A stretch of 64,000 bases of DNA from Candidatus Obscuribacterales bacterium. GTDB lineage: Bacteria > Cyanobacteriota > Vampirovibrionia > Obscuribacterales > Obscuribacteraceae. The position numbers were made by a program, and so were the translations under genes. The DNA is taken from contig CBDDIJ010000005.1 in assembly GCA_965228855.1 (NCBI GenBank), positions 416,001-480,000 of the forward strand, read 5' to 3'. Shown here piece after piece: positions 13,289-23,067 of the stretch; within the stretch, counting starts at the first letter, position 1; each line of letters starts with the position of its first letter. The notes under the pieces were generated by a model, which worked only from the letters and a program-made list of their open reading frames with translations, made no database searches and was not told the DNA's origin.

Positions 13289-14821
13289 CTACTTTTCTTC
13301 ATAGCCCTTTCCGACCTTCTCGTCAACGATTTGATCGTAGTACTGTTTTGCAGCACTGCTGTTGGGAAACGACTTCGTTTTTTCCTGCCCGTTCGTGCCG
13401 ATCCGACCGTATTTGACCGTAACATCATTGCCGTTCAGCACAATCGACCAGAATTTGCTGGACGAGCCTTCCACAAATTCGAAATATCTTGGCTGTTTGC
13501 CATCAGAAGTACTGCCACCAACTGCGGTGCCGCCTGTTTCGGGCGCAAGACTTTTCTCCTCAGGCGAAAACTGATTTGTTGAACCCACCAGGGACTGATG
13601 ACAATCAGAACAATAACAAAAGTGCGCTCCAACAACGGCTGGTTGAATAATTTCGATATCAGTTTCTGAGACTGCCCGCGGGGAGAAGTTCAACACATTG
13701 CTTTTAGTAGTAGAATTCACGACATCCCCCATCACTTCATCCGGCAAACTGTCGACATCGATTCTCGCACGCACGAATGATGGAAACCTCGGCACGCCGG
13801 CATCGGTCAATTCCTGGTAGCGGAAAGTTACGATACTGCCAATGGGCGGCGGATTGGCTCGCTCTTTGTCGGTGAAACCGGTACCGATAGCAAACTTTAT
13901 CCCGTTGGAAAGTTCGACACTGAGAGCCCCCATCTTGCCTTTGTGCTTTCCGGTTCCAGGCAAATATTCGAGGACGCGCGCCTCGGCATCATGAAAGGTT
14001 TTGACTTTGAGCAAACTGTGAGAACGGCCGTACTCATAACGCGAGTTAGGTTGCCGAAGCATAAGACCTTCACCGCCTGCAGCCTCCACTCGCTTCAACT
14101 CCTCAGTCAAATGCGCAACGTCGCGGCATCGTTCTTGCAAGTGAGGAGTCGCGTAACGAGGTCGGGTTTCATCCAACAGCTGCTGAAGATAAGCCATCCG
14201 CGCCTCGAAGACGTCGTCGACCTGAGGCGCATCGAATACGAGATACTTAACTTCTTCCCATTCCTTACCGCGATCCTGCCGCCGAACGATACTCACCGTG
14301 CGTTGAAACGTTTTGCGAGCAATCCATAACTCACCGTCAAGATGCACATCGCTAGGTAGGTCTTCGGTAAACCAATCCGGAGCCGTAAAGATGTTGCCCT
14401 GGCGAGAAACAAACTGTTTACCATCCCAATAAGCGCGCACGCCATCGAGTTTCTCGCTCATCCACCAACCGGTTAGGTCGGATGAGTTGTCCCAGGCGTG
14501 TGCAAGCAAAATACCTGGAATCAGTTCCTCTACTGCGCCACCACTAGCGCCACTAGAGGAAACTGGTAAGGCGATTCTTGAAGGGAATTTCGATTTAGCA
14601 GTCACGGCCTTCGCAGGTAACTCACCGCCCAGACGCTCGATTTCCGCCGCATCACCACGATATTTGCGCAGATGTTTGCACGTTCGCTTCTCGATCGGAT
14701 GCGATTGCGTCCGCCATGCAGGACAGCTGCAAGAGTAAACCCCGCCGGTATTCTTCAAAATATACGGATCCTTCGCTGAGCCCTGAATTTCTACCGATTC
14801 ACCATCTTCAATATCCGGCAT
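13289..14821 (-). CDS. ATP-dependent DNA ligase with N-terminal SWIM-type zinc finger and C-terminal WGR domain
   Basis: YSCSCPAW...CKH (SWIM), SEKLDGVRAYW (motif I, KxDG), LDGELW, FD, EGLMLR, LLKVK, OB fold with FAIGTGF and TFRYQELT..GVPRFP. C-terminal SSKFW...YGRIGTNGQ...KVGKGY (WGR). Start placed at ATG 14821. Confidence 0.9.
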   Translation of the reverse strand: MPDIEDGESVEIQGSAKDPYILKNTGGVYSCSCPAWRTQSHPIEKRTCKHLRKYRGDAAEIERLGGELPAKAVTAKSKFPSRIALPVSSSGASGGAVEELIPGILLAHAWDNSSDLTGWWMSEKLDGVRAYWDGKQFVSRQGNIFTAPDWFTEDLPSDVHLDGELWIARKTFQRTVSIVRRQDRGKEWEEVKYLVFDAPQVDDVFEARMAYLQQLLDETRPRYATPHLQERCRDVAHLTEELKRVEAAGGEGLMLRQPNSRYEYGRSHSLLKVKTFHDAEARVLEYLPGTGKHKGKMGALSVELSNGIKFAIGTGFTDKERANPPPIGSIVTFRYQELTDAGVPRFPSFVRARIDVDSLPDEVMGDVVNSTTKSNVLNFSPRAVSETDIEIIQPAVVGAHFCYCSDCHQSLVGSTNQFSPEEKSLAPETGGTAVGGSTSDGKQPRYFEFVEGSSSKFWSIVLNGNDVTVKYGRIGTNGQEKTKSFPNSSAAKQYYDQIVDEKVGKGYEEK

Positions 14822-14915
14822 CGTACACCCTCGTCGACTGCGGGTAATTTGCCACATAACGCAGGCATCAAATCGTCAGCCCGATTAACTTTACGAGCTG
14901 GCGAACGCCATTGAC

Positions 14916-15770
14916 TCAAACAACCAGTGGTATGCGCTCGAGTACGCCATCTCCGAAGGTTGCATAAAGACCGAGTTCGTTCATGTGGACATAGCCGATG
15001 TGACATCCGCAAACGGAGTTCGTGCATGGCGTTTCGATCAAGGCGCTCTCGAAGTTCGGATCGTAGATGTTCGCCACGGTCCCGGAAATGAAATGACAGC
15101 GCTTTATGTCACCCGCACCATCGACGGAAATGACTGCGGAACCCGCACGGCAAGCCTTCCCAAGACTTGAATGGTACTGATTATTGATAGGAAACATTGG
15201 ATCGATTGACGTCAAAAACTCAACCTCACCAGCCTCGTAGTAGTTTTCAACCCGCTTGAAAGCATTGACCCACAGGTAAACCCCAGGGGATAACTCACGA
15301 CGTAAGGAAACGATATCGTCGAAGTGCTCACGCAGTCCAACTACGCCGACAGAGAAACGTATTCCGCGCTCCTCCAGTTCGAGGCATTTCGAGAGGAAAC
15401 GTTCTCGCGGCGTTTCAGTTGGATGGAAGGTAGTCCACAAAGCTAGCTTGGCCCTGTCGCATCGCTCCACCCAGTCCAAATTGCAAGAAAGATTTGTTTG
15501 AATCGCAGCCTTGTCTATGGTATCGCTGGCGGTGAGGGCTATAAGTGCATCCTGATACCGTTTCCGAATTAAAGCTTCGCCCCATGGAGTGAACAAAACT
15601 GACAGGCGGAATTTCGTTTGAGATGTAGCCCACCTCACGAATCGCTTGAGCTGACGCTCATCTTCGGCGTGTTCCTCAACGGTTTCATGATGCTTCGCAA
15701 ACGGGCAATACTCACAACCGTAGTTGCAACTAGAGAGCGGACCGCGATAAAGGATTGATAGACTCTTCAA
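14916..15770 (-). CDS. STM4011-family radical SAM protein
   Basis: ILYRGPLSSCNYGCEYCPFAK (CxxxCxxC), FTPWGEAL, QTNLS, LWTTFHP, Cys-rich C-terminal CRAG...CHF...CTNSVCGCHIGY. Confidence 0.85.
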   Translation of the reverse strand: MKSLSILYRGPLSSCNYGCEYCPFAKHHETVEEHAEDERQLKRFVRWATSQTKFRLSVLFTPWGEALIRKRYQDALIALTASDTIDKAAIQTNLSCNLDWVERCDRAKLALWTTFHPTETPRERFLSKCLELEERGIRFSVGVVGLREHFDDIVSLRRELSPGVYLWVNAFKRVENYYEAGEVEFLTSIDPMFPINNQYHSSLGKACRAGSAVISVDGAGDIKRCHFISGTVANIYDPNFESALIETPCTNSVCGCHIGYVHMNELGLYATFGDGVLERIPLVV

Positions 15771-15775
15771 AGAAT

Positions 15776-17152
15776 TTACCTGTTCTCGTAAGAGTCCATT
15801 TTCTCTTTTACGTCAGCCGAGTAAAGTTCAAAACCAATTCGATCCGACCACGCCAAGCCGTTTTCAGTAAGATACATTCGACCGTCCACAGTCTCAACAA
15901 GTTTAAGATTCTGCAACTCGTTTAACTCGTTTGAAAAATCAGAAAGCAACGCTTCGTTGAATCGTGAGTAGTATTCATCGAAAGACAAACCATCTAGTTG
16001 TAATAACGACTGAATTACGAACCGGCGCTTTCGTTCCTCATCGTTCAAAACGAAACCATAGTCCGCGAAAGCAAACGAGTCGGATGAGGCATTGACGTAG
16101 TCATGCAAAATGTCACGAATCGGCTTCTGACCGACGGCGTACCTCATAGAATAGTGGTGCGCAGAAGTATAGGACCTCGCTCCACATCCGATACCAATCA
16201 TGCCGTCATCCTGGCAGCAGTAAACAGGTTTTGAAACTGAGTCTCGCTCTCGTCGCTCGAACATGCGCATCGACGACTGTTGATATCCGTTGTCCGTTAA
16301 AACGGTGCGCGCCTGGCGATACAGCTCCAGACGAATATCGGCGGTTTCCATACCAGCCGTTTCCCTACCGACACTTTGCCGTCCCATACCAGTTAGCGGC
16401 CTAATGTACAGTGGATAGAGATAAACTTGCTCAGGTTCGTAACTCAAAGTTTCACTTAGTGTTTGCATCCAGGTGTCAAATGTTTGCCCGGGCAAGCCGT
16501 ACATAAGATCGACGTTCAACGTTGGGAAGTTAAACTGCTTCAACCGCTCAAGCGCACGTCGGACAACATTCGAATCTTGAGACCGACCAATTGCTCTAAC
16601 TTCTGACTCGATAAAACTTTGAATTCCTATACTTAGTCGTTCAACTCCGCGCTCTTTCAAAACACTGAGTTTCTCGGTCTCCGCAGTGTATGGTGACGTC
16701 TCCACTGAGCAGGGTGCTTGTTCGGGATCTGTTTTGAAAACGCGATCGACTATGTCAAATAAACGTTCTAAATCGGTAGCGTTCAAATATGTCGGTGTGC
16801 CACCGCCTAATGCCATGCGAGCAAACGAAGCATTGCCCAGCGCTTCGGCAACTTCATGGCACTGACGCTCAACGGCGTCTAAGTACTGTTTCTCCAGCGA
16901 AGCTTCCGGATTTGTGGTTGTGAACAAATTGCAAAAGCCGCATCTCATCTCACAAAACGGAATGTGGAGATAGAGAAACAAAGCGTCGCGTTTCTCCGCT
17001 TTCCAAAGTTCCTTCAGTGGAACAGGCTGCGGGAAGTCGCGGTAAGCCGTTTTATGCGGATAAGAATACGAGTACGCTTGATAGCGCGTATCTGCGCCAT
17101 CCACGAACCGACGGGGAACGGTCACGGAACCACTGGTGGTATCACGCACCAC
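15776..17152 (-). CDS. STM4012-family HemN-like radical SAM protein
   Basis: YSYSYPHKTAY, LYLHIPFCEMRCGFCNLF, GGGTPT, RLSIGIQSF, DLMYGLPGQ, YCCQDDGMIGIGCGARSY. Confidence 0.88.
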   Translation of the reverse strand: MVRDTTSGSVTVPRRFVDGADTRYQAYSYSYPHKTAYRDFPQPVPLKELWKAEKRDALFLYLHIPFCEMRCGFCNLFTTTNPEASLEKQYLDAVERQCHEVAEALGNASFARMALGGGTPTYLNATDLERLFDIVDRVFKTDPEQAPCSVETSPYTAETEKLSVLKERGVERLSIGIQSFIESEVRAIGRSQDSNVVRRALERLKQFNFPTLNVDLMYGLPGQTFDTWMQTLSETLSYEPEQVYLYPLYIRPLTGMGRQSVGRETAGMETADIRLELYRQARTVLTDNGYQQSSMRMFERRERDSVSKPVYCCQDDGMIGIGCGARSYTSAHHYSMRYAVGQKPIRDILHDYVNASSDSFAFADYGFVLNDEERKRRFVIQSLLQLDGLSFDEYYSRFNEALLSDFSNELNELQNLKLVETVDGRMYLTENGLAWSDRIGFELYSADVKEKMDSYENR

Positions 17153-17646
17153 TAGCTTTTCTCCTTCTTCTGCTTCATCGCCTTTTTCAGAGCTTCAAGT
17201 TCAGCATCAAGAGAAAGTGACTTTGACTCGCGTTCAAACTTTCTCTCGTCATCTTTCGCCGACAATTCAGCCAGTGCTTCCTTCTCGAAGATCTTGCCTT
17301 CCAACCTTTGAAGCGTTTCCTCACCATCATCGAAATCGGGCATGCTCGGCGGCGGCGGAATATTGACGTTATGCTCAAGTTTTGAAAGCGTCACCTTCAG
17401 TTGCTTTTCCAAATCTTCTTGAGACATCAAATCAGCTTCCAGTTCTGCAATTAGAAGCTCCAGCGACCTTATTCGATCGGTGACTTCCTTTTCGACATCG
17501 TCCGCCCCGGTTTTCTGCGTGATCGCCAGACGTTTACGCCAGGTCGCAAGCTCGCCTTTCGACTTATCCAGCTTCTCTTTGATCAACTTTTGAGATGTTA
17601 CGGCCTCAATGAGCGCGTTTCGCACCTCAGCGATTTCTTCGGACAT
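17152..17646 (-). CDS. Short PspA/IM30 (Vipp1-like) family protein
   Basis: Coiled coil with W.KR...A, RLEGKI..KEA.AEL, ERKF and LDAELEALKKAM, typical of PspA. ATG 17646 has a GGAG RBS; the stop overlaps the STM4012 start. Confidence 0.75.
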   Translation of the reverse strand: MSEEIAEVRNALIEAVTSQKLIKEKLDKSKGELATWRKRLAITQKTGADDVEKEVTDRIRSLELLIAELEADLMSQEDLEKQLKVTLSKLEHNVNIPPPPSMPDFDDGEETLQRLEGKIFEKEALAELSAKDDERKFERESKSLSLDAELEALKKAMKQKKEKS

Positions 17647-17739
17647 ATGCTCTCCAATAGCGCGCAACAGCCTTCAACAGGTTATTCATCGGTCACATCC
17701 ACCTCCACGCTCCCATATCAAGGTCGTCGTTTGCGGCTG

Positions 17740-17768
17740 ATTATATTTTAGCTCCTGTTGCCTTTAAA
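17740..17768 (-). promoter_or_regulatory. Candidate sigma70 promoter for the pspA-like/radical SAM/ligase unit
   Basis: TTTAAA - 17 nt - TATAAT on the minus strand, about 95 nt upstream of the pspA-like ATG. Confidence 0.5.
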
Positions 17769-17884
17769 CCTTGCACCTTACTCAGAGCAACATGACCACA
17801 GTCACGCGCAGATATGACATATCTCAATCGTTTCGCCCAACGGTAAACGAGAGAATAAATTCATCAAACATCTGAGGAGCGCAA

Positions 17885-18274
17885 ATGTATCAAAACTCAG
17901 ACCATCGTCTACTTGAACTGAACCCGCTTTTTTCCTCTTGTATTCTAGGTTCGCTCTTTACTTCACTTCTGGTTCTCAGCGCAGCTGCCTTCCCGCAGAT
18001 CGTAGACCTGATGGTCGGAACCGCTTTCAATTGCCTTCTCCATCCCACAACCGTACTGCTCAATCCGCTCAGCTGGATCACAATTACGCCTAACATCATG
18101 TTCTGTGCTCTAGGCTACTTCTTTTTCAAGGGACAGGACGTGGCGATAGCGTTCTGGCTTACTGCCTACGCTCACTTTACGATCACGATACTTCTTATAC
18201 AGGCTTTGGGGAACAGGAGCGTGGTTCACGTTAAACGACGCAAGGCACGGATTTGCGGAGCAATCTACGCATAG
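17885..18274 (+). CDS. Hypothetical small multi-pass membrane protein
   Basis: GAGGAG RBS, 3-4 hydrophobic segments, basic C-terminal tail. Confidence 0.6.
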   Translation: MYQNSDHRLLELNPLFSSCILGSLFTSLLVLSAAAFPQIVDLMVGTAFNCLLHPTTVLLNPLSWITITPNIMFCALGYFFFKGQDVAIAFWLTAYAHFTITILLIQALGNRSVVHVKRRKARICGAIYA

Positions 18275-18286
18275 TCGGAAACCGGT

Positions 18287-19303
18287 TCACTTTCCTTCCA
18301 GCCAATACAGACGGTATTGCTTCCACTCATCTTCGTCCATCGTATATTCGGCAAAGGGTGCAACGCCCTCGAAAACGTCAGGCACCGCATCTGGTGACGC
18401 TAATCCTTGCCTGATTCCCTTGAGCGCTGTCACGAGATTCTCGCTGTATGTCATGTGTGCCGGCGTCCCTTTGTCCGTGTCGTATACAGGAATTCCGATT
18501 ATCACCGAGCATAGATGTTTCAAATCATCTTTGGACGCGGCGTTGCGCACAGCGCGAGTAACCTGAATGGCTTGCTGTTGCATAAGCCAGACATACGCAC
18601 GAGGATGATAGAGCCAGGAGTCGTATCCCATAACAGCAATCTGGTCGCAATGTGCAGAAATCACAGAAAAATGCTCGGAATCCCAACCCCAAAGCGCTCC
18701 GGGGTACCACATAGGAGTTGCCACCGAGAGAAGTTTCTCCGAACCAATCGCTGCGCGCGTCTCATCCAGTAACAGAGGAAACGTTTTGTCAGTGTTCGGG
18801 AAAAACTCATAGTCGAGTTGCACACCGTCAAACCCGCACTTTTCCGTTAGCCACTGGCAGGAAGCGACAAGATTCTCACGAGAATCTTTATCCTCAAGAT
18901 CAACCCCGACACGTCCAAAATTACTGGGCACATACAGCCAAGCCACTACCCGCACTTTGGGCAGTCGGCGGTGCAGCAGCTCGACAAGTTCGCGCGCCGG
19001 CTCTTCATACTTAAACAGCAAATTTCCATGACTGTCGGTGCTGCGCACATGGAAGTACGCATACTTAATCTGATTCGCAGATAAACGCTCGATAAGCTCA
19101 TCTCTCTCCTGCAGAGACTTTTTGCCGAAATACCAGAGATAACGAAGCCAGATGCCATTGGCACCTTTATTGAAGCTACTCCCGCCAGGTGGATTTAAAC
19201 TCAGATAGCTCACACAATCAGCCACAAATGCGACCGTCAACGCGACTAATACGCCGGCACTGATTCTAATTAACTTCAATCGGGATGCTCGTGCTGATGT
19301 CAT
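18287..19303 (-). CDS. Membrane-anchored GH18-like (TIM-barrel) glycoside hydrolase
   Basis: N-terminal TM, FDGVQLDYE (variant of the GH18 DxxDxDxE motif), DQIAVMGYD, IGIPVY. ATGA overlap with the STM4013-like gene. Confidence 0.75.
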   Translation of the reverse strand: MTSARASRLKLIRISAGVLVALTVAFVADCVSYLSLNPPGGSSFNKGANGIWLRYLWYFGKKSLQERDELIERLSANQIKYAYFHVRSTDSHGNLLFKYEEPARELVELLHRRLPKVRVVAWLYVPSNFGRVGVDLEDKDSRENLVASCQWLTEKCGFDGVQLDYEFFPNTDKTFPLLLDETRAAIGSEKLLSVATPMWYPGALWGWDSEHFSVISAHCDQIAVMGYDSWLYHPRAYVWLMQQQAIQVTRAVRNAASKDDLKHLCSVIIGIPVYDTDKGTPAHMTYSENLVTALKGIRQGLASPDAVPDVFEGVAPFAEYTMDEDEWKQYRLYWLEGK

Positions 19304-20106
19304 TTAGACTGAGGTAAAACAAACTCGCTGTATGGAACATTCCAGACACATTCATGTGAAACGCGATGCCCGACAAACCCATCCTCACCATATGCGGTGC
19401 CATGATCAGAAAAGATTAGAACTAACAAAGGAGCTCGCCTTCTCATTGTATCGAGAAGTTCCGGAAGCTGCTTGTCTACATAAGAAAGTGCCTGCGCCTG
19501 CGTTTCCTTCGAATCCTCGGTTGCACCGTCCGTAAAAATACAATTTGGCTGATGCAGCGCGGATACGTTCAAGAAGAGAAAAAGTCGTTTCTCACTGTCA
19601 GTTTTATTGATTATTTCCGTAGCCAACCGAACCTGGTTCGCTGTCGAATTTCGATCGGTAACGCCCAGTGACTTACTCCAGTAACTCTCTGAGAAGAAAG
19701 CGGGTAGAGCGTTGCCCAGTGGATTTAGTTTGTTGAAGAAACCGACTCCGCCTATGCAAACGGTTCTATAACCTTGTGAGGCGAATCCGGAAATTATGTC
19801 CGGAGTATCGAACACAACAGTGCTATCACCCGTGGTGACGCTTCCTTCGAACTTAACGGCAAATAGACGCTCATGTTCACCTGGTGTCGCAGGAGTTGGC
19901 AGAAAGCCAGTGAAGAACGCTTGATGCGCGGGAAGTGTGAAATTACCGGGACTGTGCCTTAGCTCCCATTTACCTCCGGGAAGCAACGCCTTTATGTTAG
20001 GAGTCAAACCCGCATCAAGCGCCTCAACAGCTACATCGTAACGTAGCGCATCCAGTGTGACGAGAAGAACGTCATGCGTCCCCACAATTTCTCGAGCGTT
20101 AAGCAT
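19300..20106 (-). CDS. STM4013/SEN3800-family hydrolase (alkaline phosphatase/sulfatase superfamily)
   Basis: VGTHDVLLVTLDALRYDVA, RHSPGNFTLPAH, CIGGVGFFNK, SALHQP, SDHGTAYGEDG..GHR. Confidence 0.85.
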   Translation of the reverse strand: MLNAREIVGTHDVLLVTLDALRYDVAVEALDAGLTPNIKALLPGGKWELRHSPGNFTLPAHQAFFTGFLPTPATPGEHERLFAVKFEGSVTTGDSTVVFDTPDIISGFASQGYRTVCIGGVGFFNKLNPLGNALPAFFSESYWSKSLGVTDRNSTANQVRLATEIINKTDSEKRLFLFLNVSALHQPNCIFTDGATEDSKETQAQALSYVDKQLPELLDTMRRRAPLLVLIFSDHGTAYGEDGFVGHRVSHECVWNVPYSEFVLPQSK

Positions 20107-21274
20107 TGACGCCCACCTTGCTGAGCCGGTGCCGCATCGCCTTCAGTTCCCACTCGTAAGTGCTCAATCCATCGCAGAGTATCCCCGGCAACAGGTCGCC
20201 AAAGGCGTTAGCTTCAGACACCACATGGCTGCGCATATCGGAACTGACAAGAACGTCGATGCCCAGGTATAAACAATTCGGAAAAACTCCAGCGACCCGA
20301 CGGCACGAGTTCATCACCTCCGTCCAAAATAATTCACCCATGGCCTTGCGAACACTTTGCAACTGCCCACGACCGTTTAATAAATGCAAATTCGTAAAAG
20401 GTGTGAGACTTTCACGAACGACCACATGCCTGCATTCACCGCCTATGGTGACAACTCGCAAATCGAACGTTTTCCCGTTCAACCCTGCTTTGGGGTACCA
20501 TTTCTCGACAAATATATTGTGCTCGCCTAATCGATCGATCAGAGTGCGAATCTCTTGAATATCATAGATACGCCGCACTCTTCGCGTGTTATAGATCCTA
20601 GTTTTACCTCCGGTGGAAACGGCTTCCACGGTGGTAGAAGCTAACTGTCGGTTTTGGCTTCGTTCAAAAGCAACAATGCCCGAGGCACTTGAACTATGAG
20701 CCGGTTTTACAAAAACTCGATTGCACTCGTTCCTATCCATAAGTTCAACGAGATCGTTGAACTTATGGATAGGACCAAGCAACTTCGTCGTCCTGATTTC
20801 AGCAAGGCGAAACAGCTCGTGGCACCTAATTTTATCAAATAGAATCTCTATATCGGTAGCAGAGTTCATAACCATATGCGGTGCACTCGCCTTCAATTGC
20901 ACGTCAATCAGTCTCAAGAGGCGACACCATCCCTGATACCATTGGTGCTGCGACAAAATTAATCCGCGATCAAATTGCAGAGCATCGATATCGTCATGGC
21001 ACAATGCTCCCGGGAGATTGAAATCACTTTCCTTGCTGCTAATTCCGAGACGCAACAAATCCCGCTCCAACTCAAAATCCTTTCCTGGGGATTCGATTCG
21101 AACAATATCATCGGGTTCAACTATGTCGGAAAGCTCTACCGCACCGCGAATCAGCCCCTGGAAGGAAACGACAATGATCCCCTCGATACTCTGACCGTAC
21201 TCACTTTGCTCAAGTGTGTTTCGAAACAGCTCGAGCCGTCTGCCCTCAGTTCCAATCCAGACCAGGCGACGCAT
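20099..21274 (-). CDS. STM4014-family ATP-grasp protein
   Basis: VRIESPG, FDK..CH, RVFVKPAHSSSASG, FDLRVV, TNLHLLNGRG, GIDVL, EANAFGDLLP. Confidence 0.82.
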   Translation of the reverse strand: MRRLVWIGTEGRRLELFRNTLEQSEYGQSIEGIIVVSFQGLIRGAVELSDIVEPDDIVRIESPGKDFELERDLLRLGISSKESDFNLPGALCHDDIDALQFDRGLILSQHQWYQGWCRLLRLIDVQLKASAPHMVMNSATDIEILFDKIRCHELFRLAEIRTTKLLGPIHKFNDLVELMDRNECNRVFVKPAHSSSASGIVAFERSQNRQLASTTVEAVSTGGKTRIYNTRRVRRIYDIQEIRTLIDRLGEHNIFVEKWYPKAGLNGKTFDLRVVTIGGECRHVVVRESLTPFTNLHLLNGRGQLQSVRKAMGELFWTEVMNSCRRVAGVFPNCLYLGIDVLVSSDMRSHVVSEANAFGDLLPGILCDGLSTYEWELKAMRHRLSKVGVNA

Positions 21275-22218
21275 TATTCACTGACCGCGATGAAACGCCA
21301 GATGGTTCCATCCTCTTCGCGATCACCCTCTTGCTTATCATCCAGATTTACTTTGATACCAAGGCTAAGAAATTTCTTGCTCATTTCATCCGACAAATAG
21401 TGGTAGTGGAGATCTAGATAGTCGAGATTCTTAAGATGCGGGCATTTGAGAAGAGCTTCACCACCTGTATCAGTCATGGTGCCCATCGACAAATCAAGCA
21501 CCCGGAGTTTTGAAACAACTTTCGATCTTGCAATCAGCTCCGCAATTTCGTCGGCCTTCTCAGAATTTTTCAAGCCAAGATATCGGAGCTTCGGAAAGTA
21601 GTCTCCGTTTATCAACCTATCAATGCTATCAATCGTGTACTCGGCGCCGTAATTCTCCTCGCCGAGCCAAATTTCGAGGTGCTCGAGTTCCGGAAGTCTG
21701 GTAGCCAGGTCACTGGGAACGTCTGCAGGCAAACCGCTACATTGCAGAACAAAAGAACGCAAGTCTTTGCATTTACCTAAGCCATCACCAATCGTCAAAC
21801 CTCCGGCACCTCGAATGGCAAAGTGCGTCAACTTGGGAAATGCTGTCCACAATTCACCTATATCGCCGTGATCGAGCCACGAGCACTCGGACTCCTCCAT
21901 AATCACATCGCCGAAAAACATCTGGCGAAGACCGCAAAGCTTATCCTTGTATTTCACAAGAAGCTCGACGATAAACTCTGTATCCTGAGACCCAACATCT
22001 TCCCACGGACCTATCACTAGTGATTCCAGGTGCTCTACAAGCGGATCGGCGAGCAGTCGATCAAGTTTGTCCTCCCAGTAAAGACCATCATCCTCGTACT
22101 CACTGTAGGTTAAACTGACACGAATCGCTTCACCGTGAGGGTCAATGATTCTCTTATTCGTGTCAAAGTCGACTACCGGCTTGCCACAAAATTGAATAAG
22201 ATGTTCATTGATTGTCAT
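21274..22218 (-). CDS. STM4015-family leucine-rich-repeat protein
   Basis: LVIGPW, FFGDV..EESECSW, LEHLEIWLG...YG, FPKLRYLGLKNS, LRVLDLSMGTMTD.G, LDLHYHYLS, and a C-terminal RFIAVSE. Confidence 0.85.
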   Translation of the reverse strand: MTINEHLIQFCGKPVVDFDTNKRIIDPHGEAIRVSLTYSEYEDDGLYWEDKLDRLLADPLVEHLESLVIGPWEDVGSQDTEFIVELLVKYKDKLCGLRQMFFGDVIMEESECSWLDHGDIGELWTAFPKLTHFAIRGAGGLTIGDGLGKCKDLRSFVLQCSGLPADVPSDLATRLPELEHLEIWLGEENYGAEYTIDSIDRLINGDYFPKLRYLGLKNSEKADEIAELIARSKVVSKLRVLDLSMGTMTDTGGEALLKCPHLKNLDYLDLHYHYLSDEMSKKFLSLGIKVNLDDKQEGDREEDGTIWRFIAVSE

Positions 22219-22263
22219 TCGATCCCCTCAGGCTTAGAGCGATTCGGCTGCGCGTGCATCAAA

Positions 22264-22962
22264 TCAGTAATTACTTCGCTCGGTTGAGTTCAGCTTGACG
22301 CTTGTAACGAACAACCGAATTTTTTTCTGACCGGCAACGCGAATTGGTTTACCGTCAATGCTTGCTGCCCAAATGGCAACAAGGTCGGTACCGTTGCAAA
22401 TGGCAGTGATCGTTCCCGGAGGCGCTTCCCACTCATCAGGAGGGTCGTCCTCCCACTCACTCGCCTGCGTCGCGGTCAAACTTGGATCGAACTGCAATCG
22501 GATTCGTTTATCACCGAGGGCACCGAATGTGGTGGTCGGTTCGAGACTGTCATTTTCGAATCCACTGGAAGCATTGTTCACGACATTGGTAGGACCAGAG
22601 TAGTATTGATAGAACGGATCGGTGCTGAAACCGGCTGAAGATTGCAATTTTCCAGACTCAAAGGGATTGTTGGGACAGAGTTCGTTCAACTGACGAACAG
22701 CGTCATTCTCTTGATCGCCTGGTTCAGGCCAGTGGCGGTTCCAAATACAATATTGACTTATCCAAGAAGCGATTCGGACCATCTGTTCATAGAGTTCCGT
22801 GTCAGCTTGGGAAGTCGCAAGTCTGCGCTCCATGCGTTTCTCGACGCGCTCAAGTTTCGCATCGTCGTCCATCGAATCGTCATCGCCGAGCGCTGCAGCT
22901 GGGACCTGACCAGAGACCAGGAACAAGATGGCGATCAACGTGTTTCGAAACGCCTGTTTCAT
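22264..22962 (-). CDS. Hypothetical secreted protein
   Basis: Signal peptide MKQAFRNTLIAILFLVSGQVPAAALG; mature region contains WP...PNNPF...PPGTI. Confidence 0.65.
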   Translation of the reverse strand: MKQAFRNTLIAILFLVSGQVPAAALGDDDSMDDDAKLERVEKRMERRLATSQADTELYEQMVRIASWISQYCIWNRHWPEPGDQENDAVRQLNELCPNNPFESGKLQSSAGFSTDPFYQYYSGPTNVVNNASSGFENDSLEPTTTFGALGDKRIRLQFDPSLTATQASEWEDDPPDEWEAPPGTITAICNGTDLVAIWAASIDGKPIRVAGQKKIRLFVTSVKLNSTERSNY

Positions 22963-23011: not shown

Positions 23012-23043
23012 AAAAAAATGAGGGAGCCTTTCGACCCCCTCAT
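23012..23043 (-). terminator. Intrinsic terminator after groEL
   Basis: Minus strand ATGAGGGGGTC-GAAA-GGCTCCCTCAT followed by a T run. Confidence 0.85.
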
Positions 23044-23067
23044 TCGTTTTATCATTGGTTTCTTCGA

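Follow-up and report, generated by a model that had tools for sequence, protein, structure and literature searches.

The 64,000-nucleotide stretch of DNA analysed here (hereafter the window; all coordinates are positions within it) carries, in the region 13289..22962, an intact but split copy of the STM4011-STM4015 cassette, a widespread and uncharacterised set of genes for a leucine-rich repeat (LRR) protein (STM4015), an ATP-grasp ligase (STM4014), a phosphoesterase (STM4013) and two radical S-adenosylmethionine (SAM) enzymes (STM4012 and STM4011). We put at roughly 0.55 the probability that STM4014 docks on STM4015 and amidates its C-terminal glutamate, Glu314, and that the two radical SAM enzymes and the NPP-type STM4013 tailor the resulting adduct. 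The strongest clue is the invariance of this terminal glutamate, a feature absent from the initial annotation of the region; its pairing with a LysX-like ligase and a predicted complex of the two proteins give the cassette a specific, testable mechanism. If correct, carrier or C-terminal-Glu chemistry would reach a large LRR solenoid, and two new radical SAM reactions would occur on a protein tail.

The five family assignments made in the initial annotation hold, as every NCBIfam model scored above its curated cut-off (bits/cut-off: STM4015, NF038076, 297/275; STM4014, NF038074, 330/175; STM4013, NF038075, 398/250; STM4012, NF006067, 591/380; STM4011, NF038073, 389/200). That these families form a cassette across phyla is likewise borne out by a conserved cluster, with all five genes inside one fetched locus in 128 of 189 loci from outside the genus, many of the rest being short contigs. 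The cassette is known from Salmonella (where it lies between ompL and typA), Bacteroides, Paenibacillus, Deinococcus, actinomycetes, planctomycetes, myxobacteria and cyanobacteria. In agreement with the claim that no function has been assigned to the families, we found no functional study of any copy in the literature searched (subscription papers and supplements lay outside its scope and could bear on novelty). In the accessible portions of PMC12413039, PMC3844500 and PMC2784778, STM4011-STM4015 genes appear only in tables.

The terminal glutamate of STM4015 and its candidate ligase

STM4015 of the window has a net charge of -27 and no hydrophobic segment, finds 2RA8 (E 2e-75) and ribonuclease inhibitor as PDB matches, and ends in WRFIAVSE; the tail consensus of the family is R-[YF]-x-[AS]-V-[SGAT]-E. 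Glutamate is the last residue of 210 of 216 distinct STM4015 tails, compared with 12 of 810 other annotated open reading frames (ORFs); tails were counted where the profile match lies within 25 residues of the protein end, a rule outside which 3 of 225 closed ORFs fall. The same residue closes all 106 rows of the STM4015 alignment and all 120 database homologues listed (the best 120 of 320, found with a query profile that itself carried the tail), 109 of which match R[YFW]x[ASTEQ][VIL]xE. It is kept even where the rest of the tail differs, as in tails of the GDYE type, which go with a long-branched STM4014 clade (Shimodaira-Hasegawa-like approximate likelihood-ratio support, SH-aLRT, 100) in a quick tree of 82 rows, from which L199 and L200 were dropped for short matches. 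Judged from the sequences, tail and diverged ligase are possibly a co-evolving pair, which would count as one event only. We observed this tail, in the form Y/F-L-x-x-G-D-[YIM]-E, together with a strongly diverged STM4014 in a planctomycete subgroup (L018, L020, L224, L225, L228, L234). STM4015 is likely the substrate or carrier of the system, and it remains immediately upstream of STM4014 in the opposed-halves cassettes of Kofleriaceae and Planctomycetota.

The model of STM4014 reached a predicted local distance difference test (pLDDT) value of 95.6, and its Foldseek matches at ranks 1-8 (E 1e-11 to 3e-10, 12-14% identity) are ArgX-LysW, LysX/ArgX-LysW, RimK and LysX; LysX and RimK are also the top matches in profile searches. 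Residues K148, K190, R273, N295, D340, E354 and N356 are invariant. Among them, R273, E354 and N356 (the acceptor-site Arg and the E-x-N metal motif) occur in 100 of 100 rows and are common to other ATP-grasp ligases, hence not diagnostic. R273 aligns with R189 of RimK, and the NLH motif also aligns with RimK. In the sections of the two papers available, R189 is the site for the acceptor's C-terminal Glu (PMC10375531), and ArgX joins glutamate to the gamma-carboxyl of the terminal Glu of LysW (PMC4490483).

The predicted STM4014-STM4015 complex scored 0.81, against 0.00 for the best of three controls. Of 157 solved pairs, 116 reach the mark for this score, as do 2 of 215 mismatched ones; with our own alignments and ligands as input, these rates apply only roughly here. 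At least 96% of contacts are shared between runs, and the partner pLDDT is at least 91. In the predicted interface, the ligase loop P261-K262-A263 sits on the LRR motif E108-E109-x-E111-x-x-W114, and the lowest-error pair is the invariant K262 with E108 (85% conserved), beside E111 (93%) and W114 (98%). Glu314 also lies in the confident interface, as do ligase residues 290-292, which neighbour the T294-N295 loop. The pairing of LRR protein and ATP-grasp enzyme suggested earlier is therefore supported by both the LysX/ArgX/RimK-like fold and the modelled complex, and STM4014 likely binds STM4015.

Several observations weigh against amidation of the tail. Foldseek ranks 9-15 (PPIP5K2, D-Ala ligases) lie within about 100-fold of the E-value of rank 1, and the sequence matches to LysX/RimK, at E 1e-4 to 4e-3, are weak and closely followed by biotin carboxylase. 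In the modelled complex, the 25 lowest-error pairs do not include Glu314, and the listed contacts contain none of the catalytic residues R273, R287, N295 and N356; the model thus does not show the tail entering the active site. The interface as a whole is no more conserved than the rest of either protein (0.51 vs 0.55; 0.47 vs 0.55). The complex score may also partly reflect likeness to solved ligase-carrier complexes. STM4014 does not stand beside STM4015 in three congeners (G001, G003, G004). Finally, 6 of the 216 tails end without Glu, all of them in divergent extra paralogues or broken frames, and a WGR-WGR-STM4015-STM4014 fusion on one contig (P0001), which may be an assembly frameshift, has no terminal Glu. 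We count in favour of the proposal that three congeners with a cassette lacking STM4014 keep the gene elsewhere.

Tailoring enzymes and rival explanations

For STM4013, the best PDB match is the NPP 2GSN (E 1.4e-5), with Thr57 aligned to the NPP nucleophile; a Pfam Sulfatase match was also obtained. D19, H61, H185, D234, H235 and H247 form an invariant His/Asp metal set, and Thr57 and His61 are invariant in 29 of 29 rows. This metal set and the invariant Thr57 aligned to NPP make a sulfatase less likely than a phosphodiesterase or phosphotransferase. Radical SAM methyltransferases of the HemN-like type (class C) transfer a methyl group using two SAM molecules. STM4012 has the HemN fold, CxxxCxxC and a HemN_C domain, and its nearest PDB matches are HemN (1OLT, E 4e-52) and the methyltransferase NocN (9P2U, E 8e-33). 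Twitch/SPASM enzymes carry a set of cysteines near the C-terminus for an auxiliary cluster. STM4011 has five further invariant cysteines (207, 225, 249, 254, 256) and no Pfam SPASM match at E<=0.05, and a sequence search against the PDB gave nothing under E 0.6. Its model (pLDDT 92) matched the Twitch/SPASM-type fold neighbours anSME (top), SuiB, BlsE and SkfB in Foldseek. By VIA, BlsE (Z 16.2, root-mean-square deviation 3.8, 260 residues) is tied with SkfB (Z 15.2), near SuiB and MoaA. Such matches to a modelled fold do not tell whether the substrate is a peptide or rather a nucleoside or sugar.

In the proposed mechanism, STM4014 would dock on the cassette's own LRR protein and use ATP to form an acyl-phosphate on Glu314, and an amide would then be formed between Glu314 and an amine. 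The cargo could be a phosphorylated sugar or nucleotide-like group, as suggested by the NPP-type STM4013, the recurrent HAD phosphatase and the BlsE-like fold of STM4011. The HAD phosphatase, which comes after the cassette in Salmonella, is found again in 19 loci and forms one protein with STM4011 in a record from Bacteroides (L200), favours a phosphorylated cargo. STM4012 may methylate the attached group by radical chemistry, STM4011 may oxidise or rearrange it, and STM4013 would help to tailor it. LysW, a small zinc-ribbon fold, belongs to a pathway that uses a carboxypeptidase to release its product. No such carboxypeptidase was present among the recurrent neighbour clusters or recurred in 150 scanned neighbour proteins (an unlinked gene was not searched for), and because none recurs with the cassette the end product is more likely a modified LRR protein than a released metabolite.

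Loci were sampled by STM4012 from genomes (80) and by STM4014 from metagenomes (80), with further STM4014 loci from a plasmid collection (6 of 13 matches) and from cyanobacteria (4 of 5), one viral contig by STM4015, and STM4011 loci from 20 of 22 matches in the class to which the Singulisphaera genome G337 belongs. The counts exclude L001-L015, L101, L110-L114 and L206-L221 (short duplicates of fetched regions, or weak matches only). The 189 outside loci hold at least one core gene each and are not independent (about 56 are from Micromonosporaceae, and at least one pair shares a contig), and their flanks are between about 1 and 21 kb long. At a distance of up to 4 kb from a core gene we found the small His-rich protein in 43 loci, DUF6745 in 47, HAD in 19, MoxR in 8, WGR in 20 (18 of them WGR-STM4015 fusions), the ligase in 1, and GH18, PspA-like and secreted protein in 0. 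The accessory profiles were built from few sequences each, and distant GH18 or PspA homologues could be missed; a Pfam scan of 150 neighbour proteins also contained no GH18 or PspA.

As the predicted interface lies mainly on the N-terminal LRR face and not at the tail, STM4015 might instead be a non-covalent scaffold or activator with its terminal Glu as a docking element, the four enzymes making a free small molecule such as a nucleoside-like metabolite. BlsE, the best structural match of STM4011, belongs by PDB title to a nucleoside antibiotic pathway, and NPP-type and HAD phosphoesterases suit small phosphorylated substrates. However, a strictly terminal Glu across phyla, together with a ligase whose nearest folds act on a terminal Glu, is better explained by carboxylate chemistry, and no transporter or resistance gene recurs among the 150 neighbours scanned, which leaves this explanation doubtful. 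Even with chemistry at the tail, STM4014 might do as RimK does and only extend STM4015 by glutamate(s) or another amino acid, which would act as a regulatory mark, STM4013-4012-4011 being a separate module with its own substrate. The alignment of R273 and the NLH motif with RimK speaks for such an extension, as does the commonest split of the cassette, into a 4015-4014 half and a 4013-4012-4011 half. Yet the five genes lie together in the 128 complete loci, and the splits in this genus fall at other joints, so we consider it unlikely. A further proposal concerns the enzymes only: anSMEs act on the Cys/Ser-x-Pro-x-Arg motif of sulfatases. With anSME as the top Foldseek match of STM4011 and a Pfam Sulfatase match for STM4013, the former could be an anSME-type maturase for the latter, but the nucleophile position holds an invariant Thr with His at +4, aligned to NPP, the sulfatase motif is absent, and anSME ranks 18th for STM4011 by VIA. 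This makes a maturase extremely improbable.

The initial annotation had read all nine genes as one envelope-stress and DNA-damage or defence system that includes the GH18, PspA-like and secreted proteins as coupled partners as well as the ligase. Tight overlaps join GH18 to STM4013 and PspA-like to STM4012, the order is identical in L016 and L115, and all 8 genomes of the genus have both ligase and cassette, which none of the 33 others does. The expected neighbourhood enrichment nevertheless failed to appear, with 0 of 189 outside loci for GH18, PspA-like and secreted genes and 1 of 189 for the ligase; GH18 was not found in 4 of 5 congeners, hydrophobic N-terminal segments occur on the GH18 and secreted proteins and on none of the core proteins, and PADLOC (2023 library) gave no STM4013, STM4014 or STM4015 match at E<=0.01 and, for WGR and the two radical SAM enzymes, only matches that were weak or partial. 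The envelope-stress reading is mostly refuted and the nine-gene unit very improbable; dropping the GH18, PspA-like and secreted genes from the model avoids a wrong gene set. Closer to the amidation proposal, STM4015 could serve as a conjugated tag or delivery arm, in which the LRR, often together with WGR, would recognise a damaged or foreign nucleic-acid or protein target, and STM4014 would ligate the terminal Glu to a target amine built or exposed by the radical SAM enzymes and the phosphoesterase. Pup-like chemistry is the comparison for this idea, which we rate as decidedly unlikely; if true, an ATP-grasp enzyme would drive a covalent conjugation system of a new kind, which would act in repair or conflict together with a DNA ligase guided by WGR.

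Gene order, history and companions of the cassette

All nine claimed minus-strand ORFs were found intact (Table 1), and the claimed junctions are exact. STM4015 and STM4014 overlap by 1 bp, STM4014 and STM4013 by 8 bp, and STM4013 and GH18 by 4 bp; in the second block, PspA-like and STM4012 overlap by 1 bp, and a 5-bp gap separates STM4012 from STM4011. A promoter proposed for this block (TTTAAA-17-TATAAT) does not stand out, as 4 such sites occur in the region vs 10.7 +/- 2.9 in shuffles. Each core family is single-copy in the genome (profile search, weak matches aside). The whole stretch is present in one contig of the public run X5, which may be the source sample, with zero differences; the RNA-labelled run X1 was rejected as expression evidence, being probably DNA. 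The nearest named record, L016, is an Obscuribacterales metagenome-assembled genome with an STM4012 97% identical to that of the window.

Table 1. Features of the studied region and its edge.
Feature	Position	Strand	Basis
Putative secreted protein	22264..22962	-	resident family gene at one edge of the insertion slot
STM4015-family LRR protein, 314 aa	21274..22218	-	NF038076; PDB 2RA8 homologue
Codon of C-terminal Glu314 of STM4015	21277..21279	-	conservation of last residue
STM4014-family ATP-grasp ligase, 391 aa, LysX/ArgX/RimK-like	20099..21274	-	NF038074; Foldseek; HMM; conservation
STM4013-family alkaline-phosphatase-superfamily enzyme, NPP-type	19300..20106	-	NF038075; NPP 2GSN; conservation
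GH18-like hydrolase	18287..19303	-	PF00704
129-aa hydrophobic ORF between blocks, putative gene	17885..18274	+	ORF list, hydropathy
Sigma-70-like promoter match 5' of block 2	17740..17768	-	10/12 match; not above chance
Short PspA-like coiled-coil protein, 164 aa	17152..17646	-	PF04012, marginal
STM4012-family HemN-like radical SAM enzyme, 458 aa	15776..17152	-	NF006067; HemN, NocN matches
STM4011-family radical SAM enzyme, Twitch/SPASM-like	14916..15770	-	NF038073; model; Foldseek
ATP-dependent DNA ligase, SWIM-like N-terminus, C-terminal WGR	13289..14821	-	PRK09125, PF05406
13-bp terminator-like hairpin after groEL, 5' of block 1	23016..23045	-	sequence scan

Regarding the accessory genes, the GH18, ligase and WGR identities given in the initial annotation were confirmed, PspA is marginal, and SWIM is a motif only, without a Pfam match. 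GH18 chitinases carry the catalytic motif DxxDxDxE. The window protein (PF00704, E 5e-12; N-terminal hydrophobic anchor) has DGVQLDYE, in which Gln replaces the second Asp and DxE is kept, and it is a match to a GH18-like fold only. PspA-like scored 34.1 bits vs a cut-off of 33.9 and covers only profile positions 34-128 of 220. The GH18 gene was found in one of 5 congeners, where its contig carries no cassette genes. The PspA-like gene precedes STM4012 by about 4-5 kb in G002 and G005, and in G001 it lies on another contig than the five-gene block; both genes are likely later local insertions. The secreted-protein gene was rejected as first member of the operon, being a resident gene that is present in 3 of 5 cassette-free family members. 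The plus-strand ORF between the blocks, overlooked earlier, runs head-on (convergent) to GH18 and has a homologue in one of five relatives searched (G007, 81% identical). In L115 a 186-aa membrane gene takes its place, and the same gene precedes PspA-like in other congeners.

Across 41 genomes, STM4014 scored above its cut-off in 8 of 8 from the genus and 0 of 33 other relatives, and the ligase showed the same pattern; cassette and WGR-ligase are thus confined to one genus among the relatives searched. The slot is edged by the secreted-protein gene on one side and FAD-monooxygenase/ispF/accC genes on the other. In two family members without the cassette, the secreted gene and the FAD-monooxygenase are both retained and other genes separate them, so cassette and ligase likely entered a variable slot. 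Three layouts occur in the genus. In G001, G003 and G004 the order is 4015-4013-4012-4011-ligase, with STM4014 elsewhere in the genome; in G002, G005 and G006, 4015-4014-4013 and 4012-4011-ligase are on separate contigs, and in G002 STM4013 is followed by at least 11 kb of other genes; in the window, L016 and L115, which share one gene order, a 2.1-kb GH18/PspA insert separates STM4013 from STM4012. Loci L096:11767-12933, L098 and L102/L103 belong to the three congeners in which the cassette lacks STM4014 and the gene sits at an unlinked site. In the quick tree, the genus clade (support 99) does not include the displaced STM4014 of G001, which may be a separate acquisition.

Beyond the genus, the cassette varies in several ways. 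STM4015 is present in 2-5 copies in 30 of the 128 complete loci; cyanobacterial-type loci (L155, L161, L173, L180, L194, L202) carry up to five STM4015-like copies with Hsp70-like and GrpE-like/HTH genes. STM4014 is fused to STM4013 in two loci (L023, L089). The Bacteroides record with the HAD fusion (L200:5687-9704) contains WGR-STM4015, STM4014, a 77-aa STM4013 stub and STM4011-HAD, with no STM4012 within the stretch. A His-rich protein of 98-105 aa (RxGD...GExxGHxH...HxEH...QREY) is paired with a DUF6745 protein at the cassette flank in 43-47 of 189 loci (e.g., L124:11036-11329, L196:11061-12358, L255:4997-8119); the pair also occurs on a viral contig and, unlinked to the cassette, twice in the window's genome (C3:1694801, C5:132082). 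The small protein belongs to no Pfam or NCBIfam family, the ESM Atlas returned only unnamed clusters for it and the family itself for STM4013, and no paper on DUF6745 was found in the literature searched. A viral contig carries STM4015 and STM4014 at its end, possibly as host flank; phage carriage was rejected on account of this lone contig and of four viral ligase loci without cassette genes.

The ligase (PRK09125, 346/200 bits; WGR PF05406) has an adenylation domain with KxDG, OB_2 and WGR, which places it in the NT-OB2-WGR class, and it is the only WGR gene found in the genome. Its SWIM-like N-terminal motif CxC-x15-CxH is kept in 120 of 120 ligase homologues, with no Pfam SWIM model at E<=0.05. 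The start is most likely the ATG at 14821, as in relatives, 94 bp after STM4011; the gene follows STM4011 by 41-186 bp in 8 of 8 genus loci measured. Congener ligases (L104-L107, L109, L253) have 707-733 aa and two WGR domains, compared with one in the window. Among 151 genomes of the class of G337, STM4011 occurs in 22 and the ligase in 36 (both in 12, adjacent in 1), i.e., the ligase is present in 12 of 22 STM4011 genomes vs 24 of 129 others. The 201 genomes of the phylum of G339 (a Kofleriaceae genome) contain STM4011 in 10 and the ligase in 13 (both in 6, adjacent in 0), or 6 of 10 vs 7 of 191. Fisher p values of 7e-4 and 4e-6 are both inflated by kinship and genome size. The ligase was rejected as a core member, adjoining the cassette in 1 of 18 outside genomes holding both and in 1 of 189 outside loci; in this one case (L235), the genes for ligase-WGR, a small His protein and DUF6745 converge on the cassette. 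The ligase is best described as a recurring companion at the lineage level and not as part of the core.

WGR is a more general link than the ligase: it is fused to STM4015 in Myxococcota, Planctomycetota and Bacteroidota, including PDB 2RA8, and the WGR-based nucleic-acid link is real in several lineages. The hint of a DNA-damage or defence role partly survives: several phyla have WGR domains that recur with the cassette, and some lineages have MoxR-vWA ternary conflict genes at its flanks, but the ligase is rarely adjacent. Genes of these ternary systems (bpMoxR, ivWA, fvmX6, fvmX7, bpX3) were observed beside the cassette at L018, L020, L027, L028, L031, L040, L064, L087, L025 and L234; in Kofleriaceae they are codirectional, running into WGR-TIGR02996-STM4015 and STM4014. 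A defence-island context was rejected, as the neighbours scanned (150 of the 153 called at 48 chosen loci, no control set) fall into mixed metabolic families with scattered conflict genes only.

Relation to known systems

The window contains all five families of the STM4011-STM4015 cassette (NF038073, NF006067, NF038075, NF038074, NF038076) in canonical order, but its copy is split at STM4013/STM4012 by the 2.1-kb insert, is followed by the WGR-ligase and has neither an adjacent HAD phosphatase nor the small-His-protein/DUF6745 pair. The ligase shares its core and WGR with the NT-OB2-WGR ATP-dependent DNA ligases of Planctomycetia and deltaproteobacteria covered in the available part of PMC7470946, and scoring of 8,000 candidates gave at least 6,748 homologues at E<=1e-60; it stands directly after STM4011 throughout one Obscuribacterales genus, whereas elsewhere the two are usually unlinked. 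Literature searches linking WGR with radical SAM, ATP-grasp or LRR returned unrelated work only, and those on WGR with DNA damage and Bacteroides held nothing relevant among the matches listed (the best 20 of 202). Genes of the FtsH-type and beta-propeller MoxR-vWA ternary conflict systems (PMC7159879, as far as its text was available) flank the cassette in some Kofleriaceae and Planctomycetota loci but are not near the window copy. The accessible main text of that paper describes other radical SAM enzymes, has no match to WGR or ATP-grasp, and does not include the cassette in its conflict-system descriptions.

PDB 2RA8 (Bacteroides fragilis Q64V53), labelled uncharacterised, is a solved WGR-STM4015 fusion whose residue 354 is the terminal Glu of YPMITE, whereas the window STM4015 has no WGR; the only literature match was a plant-receptor preprint. 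The deposited chain runs 8 residues beyond Glu354, probably a tag, and because this only solved member has residues past the Glu, constructs need a free C-terminus. The closest parallels to the proposed chemistry are LysW/ArgW with LysX/ArgX (PDB 3VPB, 5K2M, 3VPD; PMC4490483, available in part), which share the ligase fold and an acidic partner ending in Glu. The window partner, however, is a 314-aa LRR solenoid and not a small zinc-ribbon protein, and the tailoring enzymes of the cassette are radical SAM enzymes and a phosphoesterase. RimK, which glutamylates S6 (PDB 4IWX, 5ZCT; PMC10375531, likewise in part), shares the D-x-R and NLH motifs and acts on the C-terminal Glu of a protein; it is 14-15% identical to STM4014, and the cassette differs in encoding its own putative substrate and extra tailoring enzymes.

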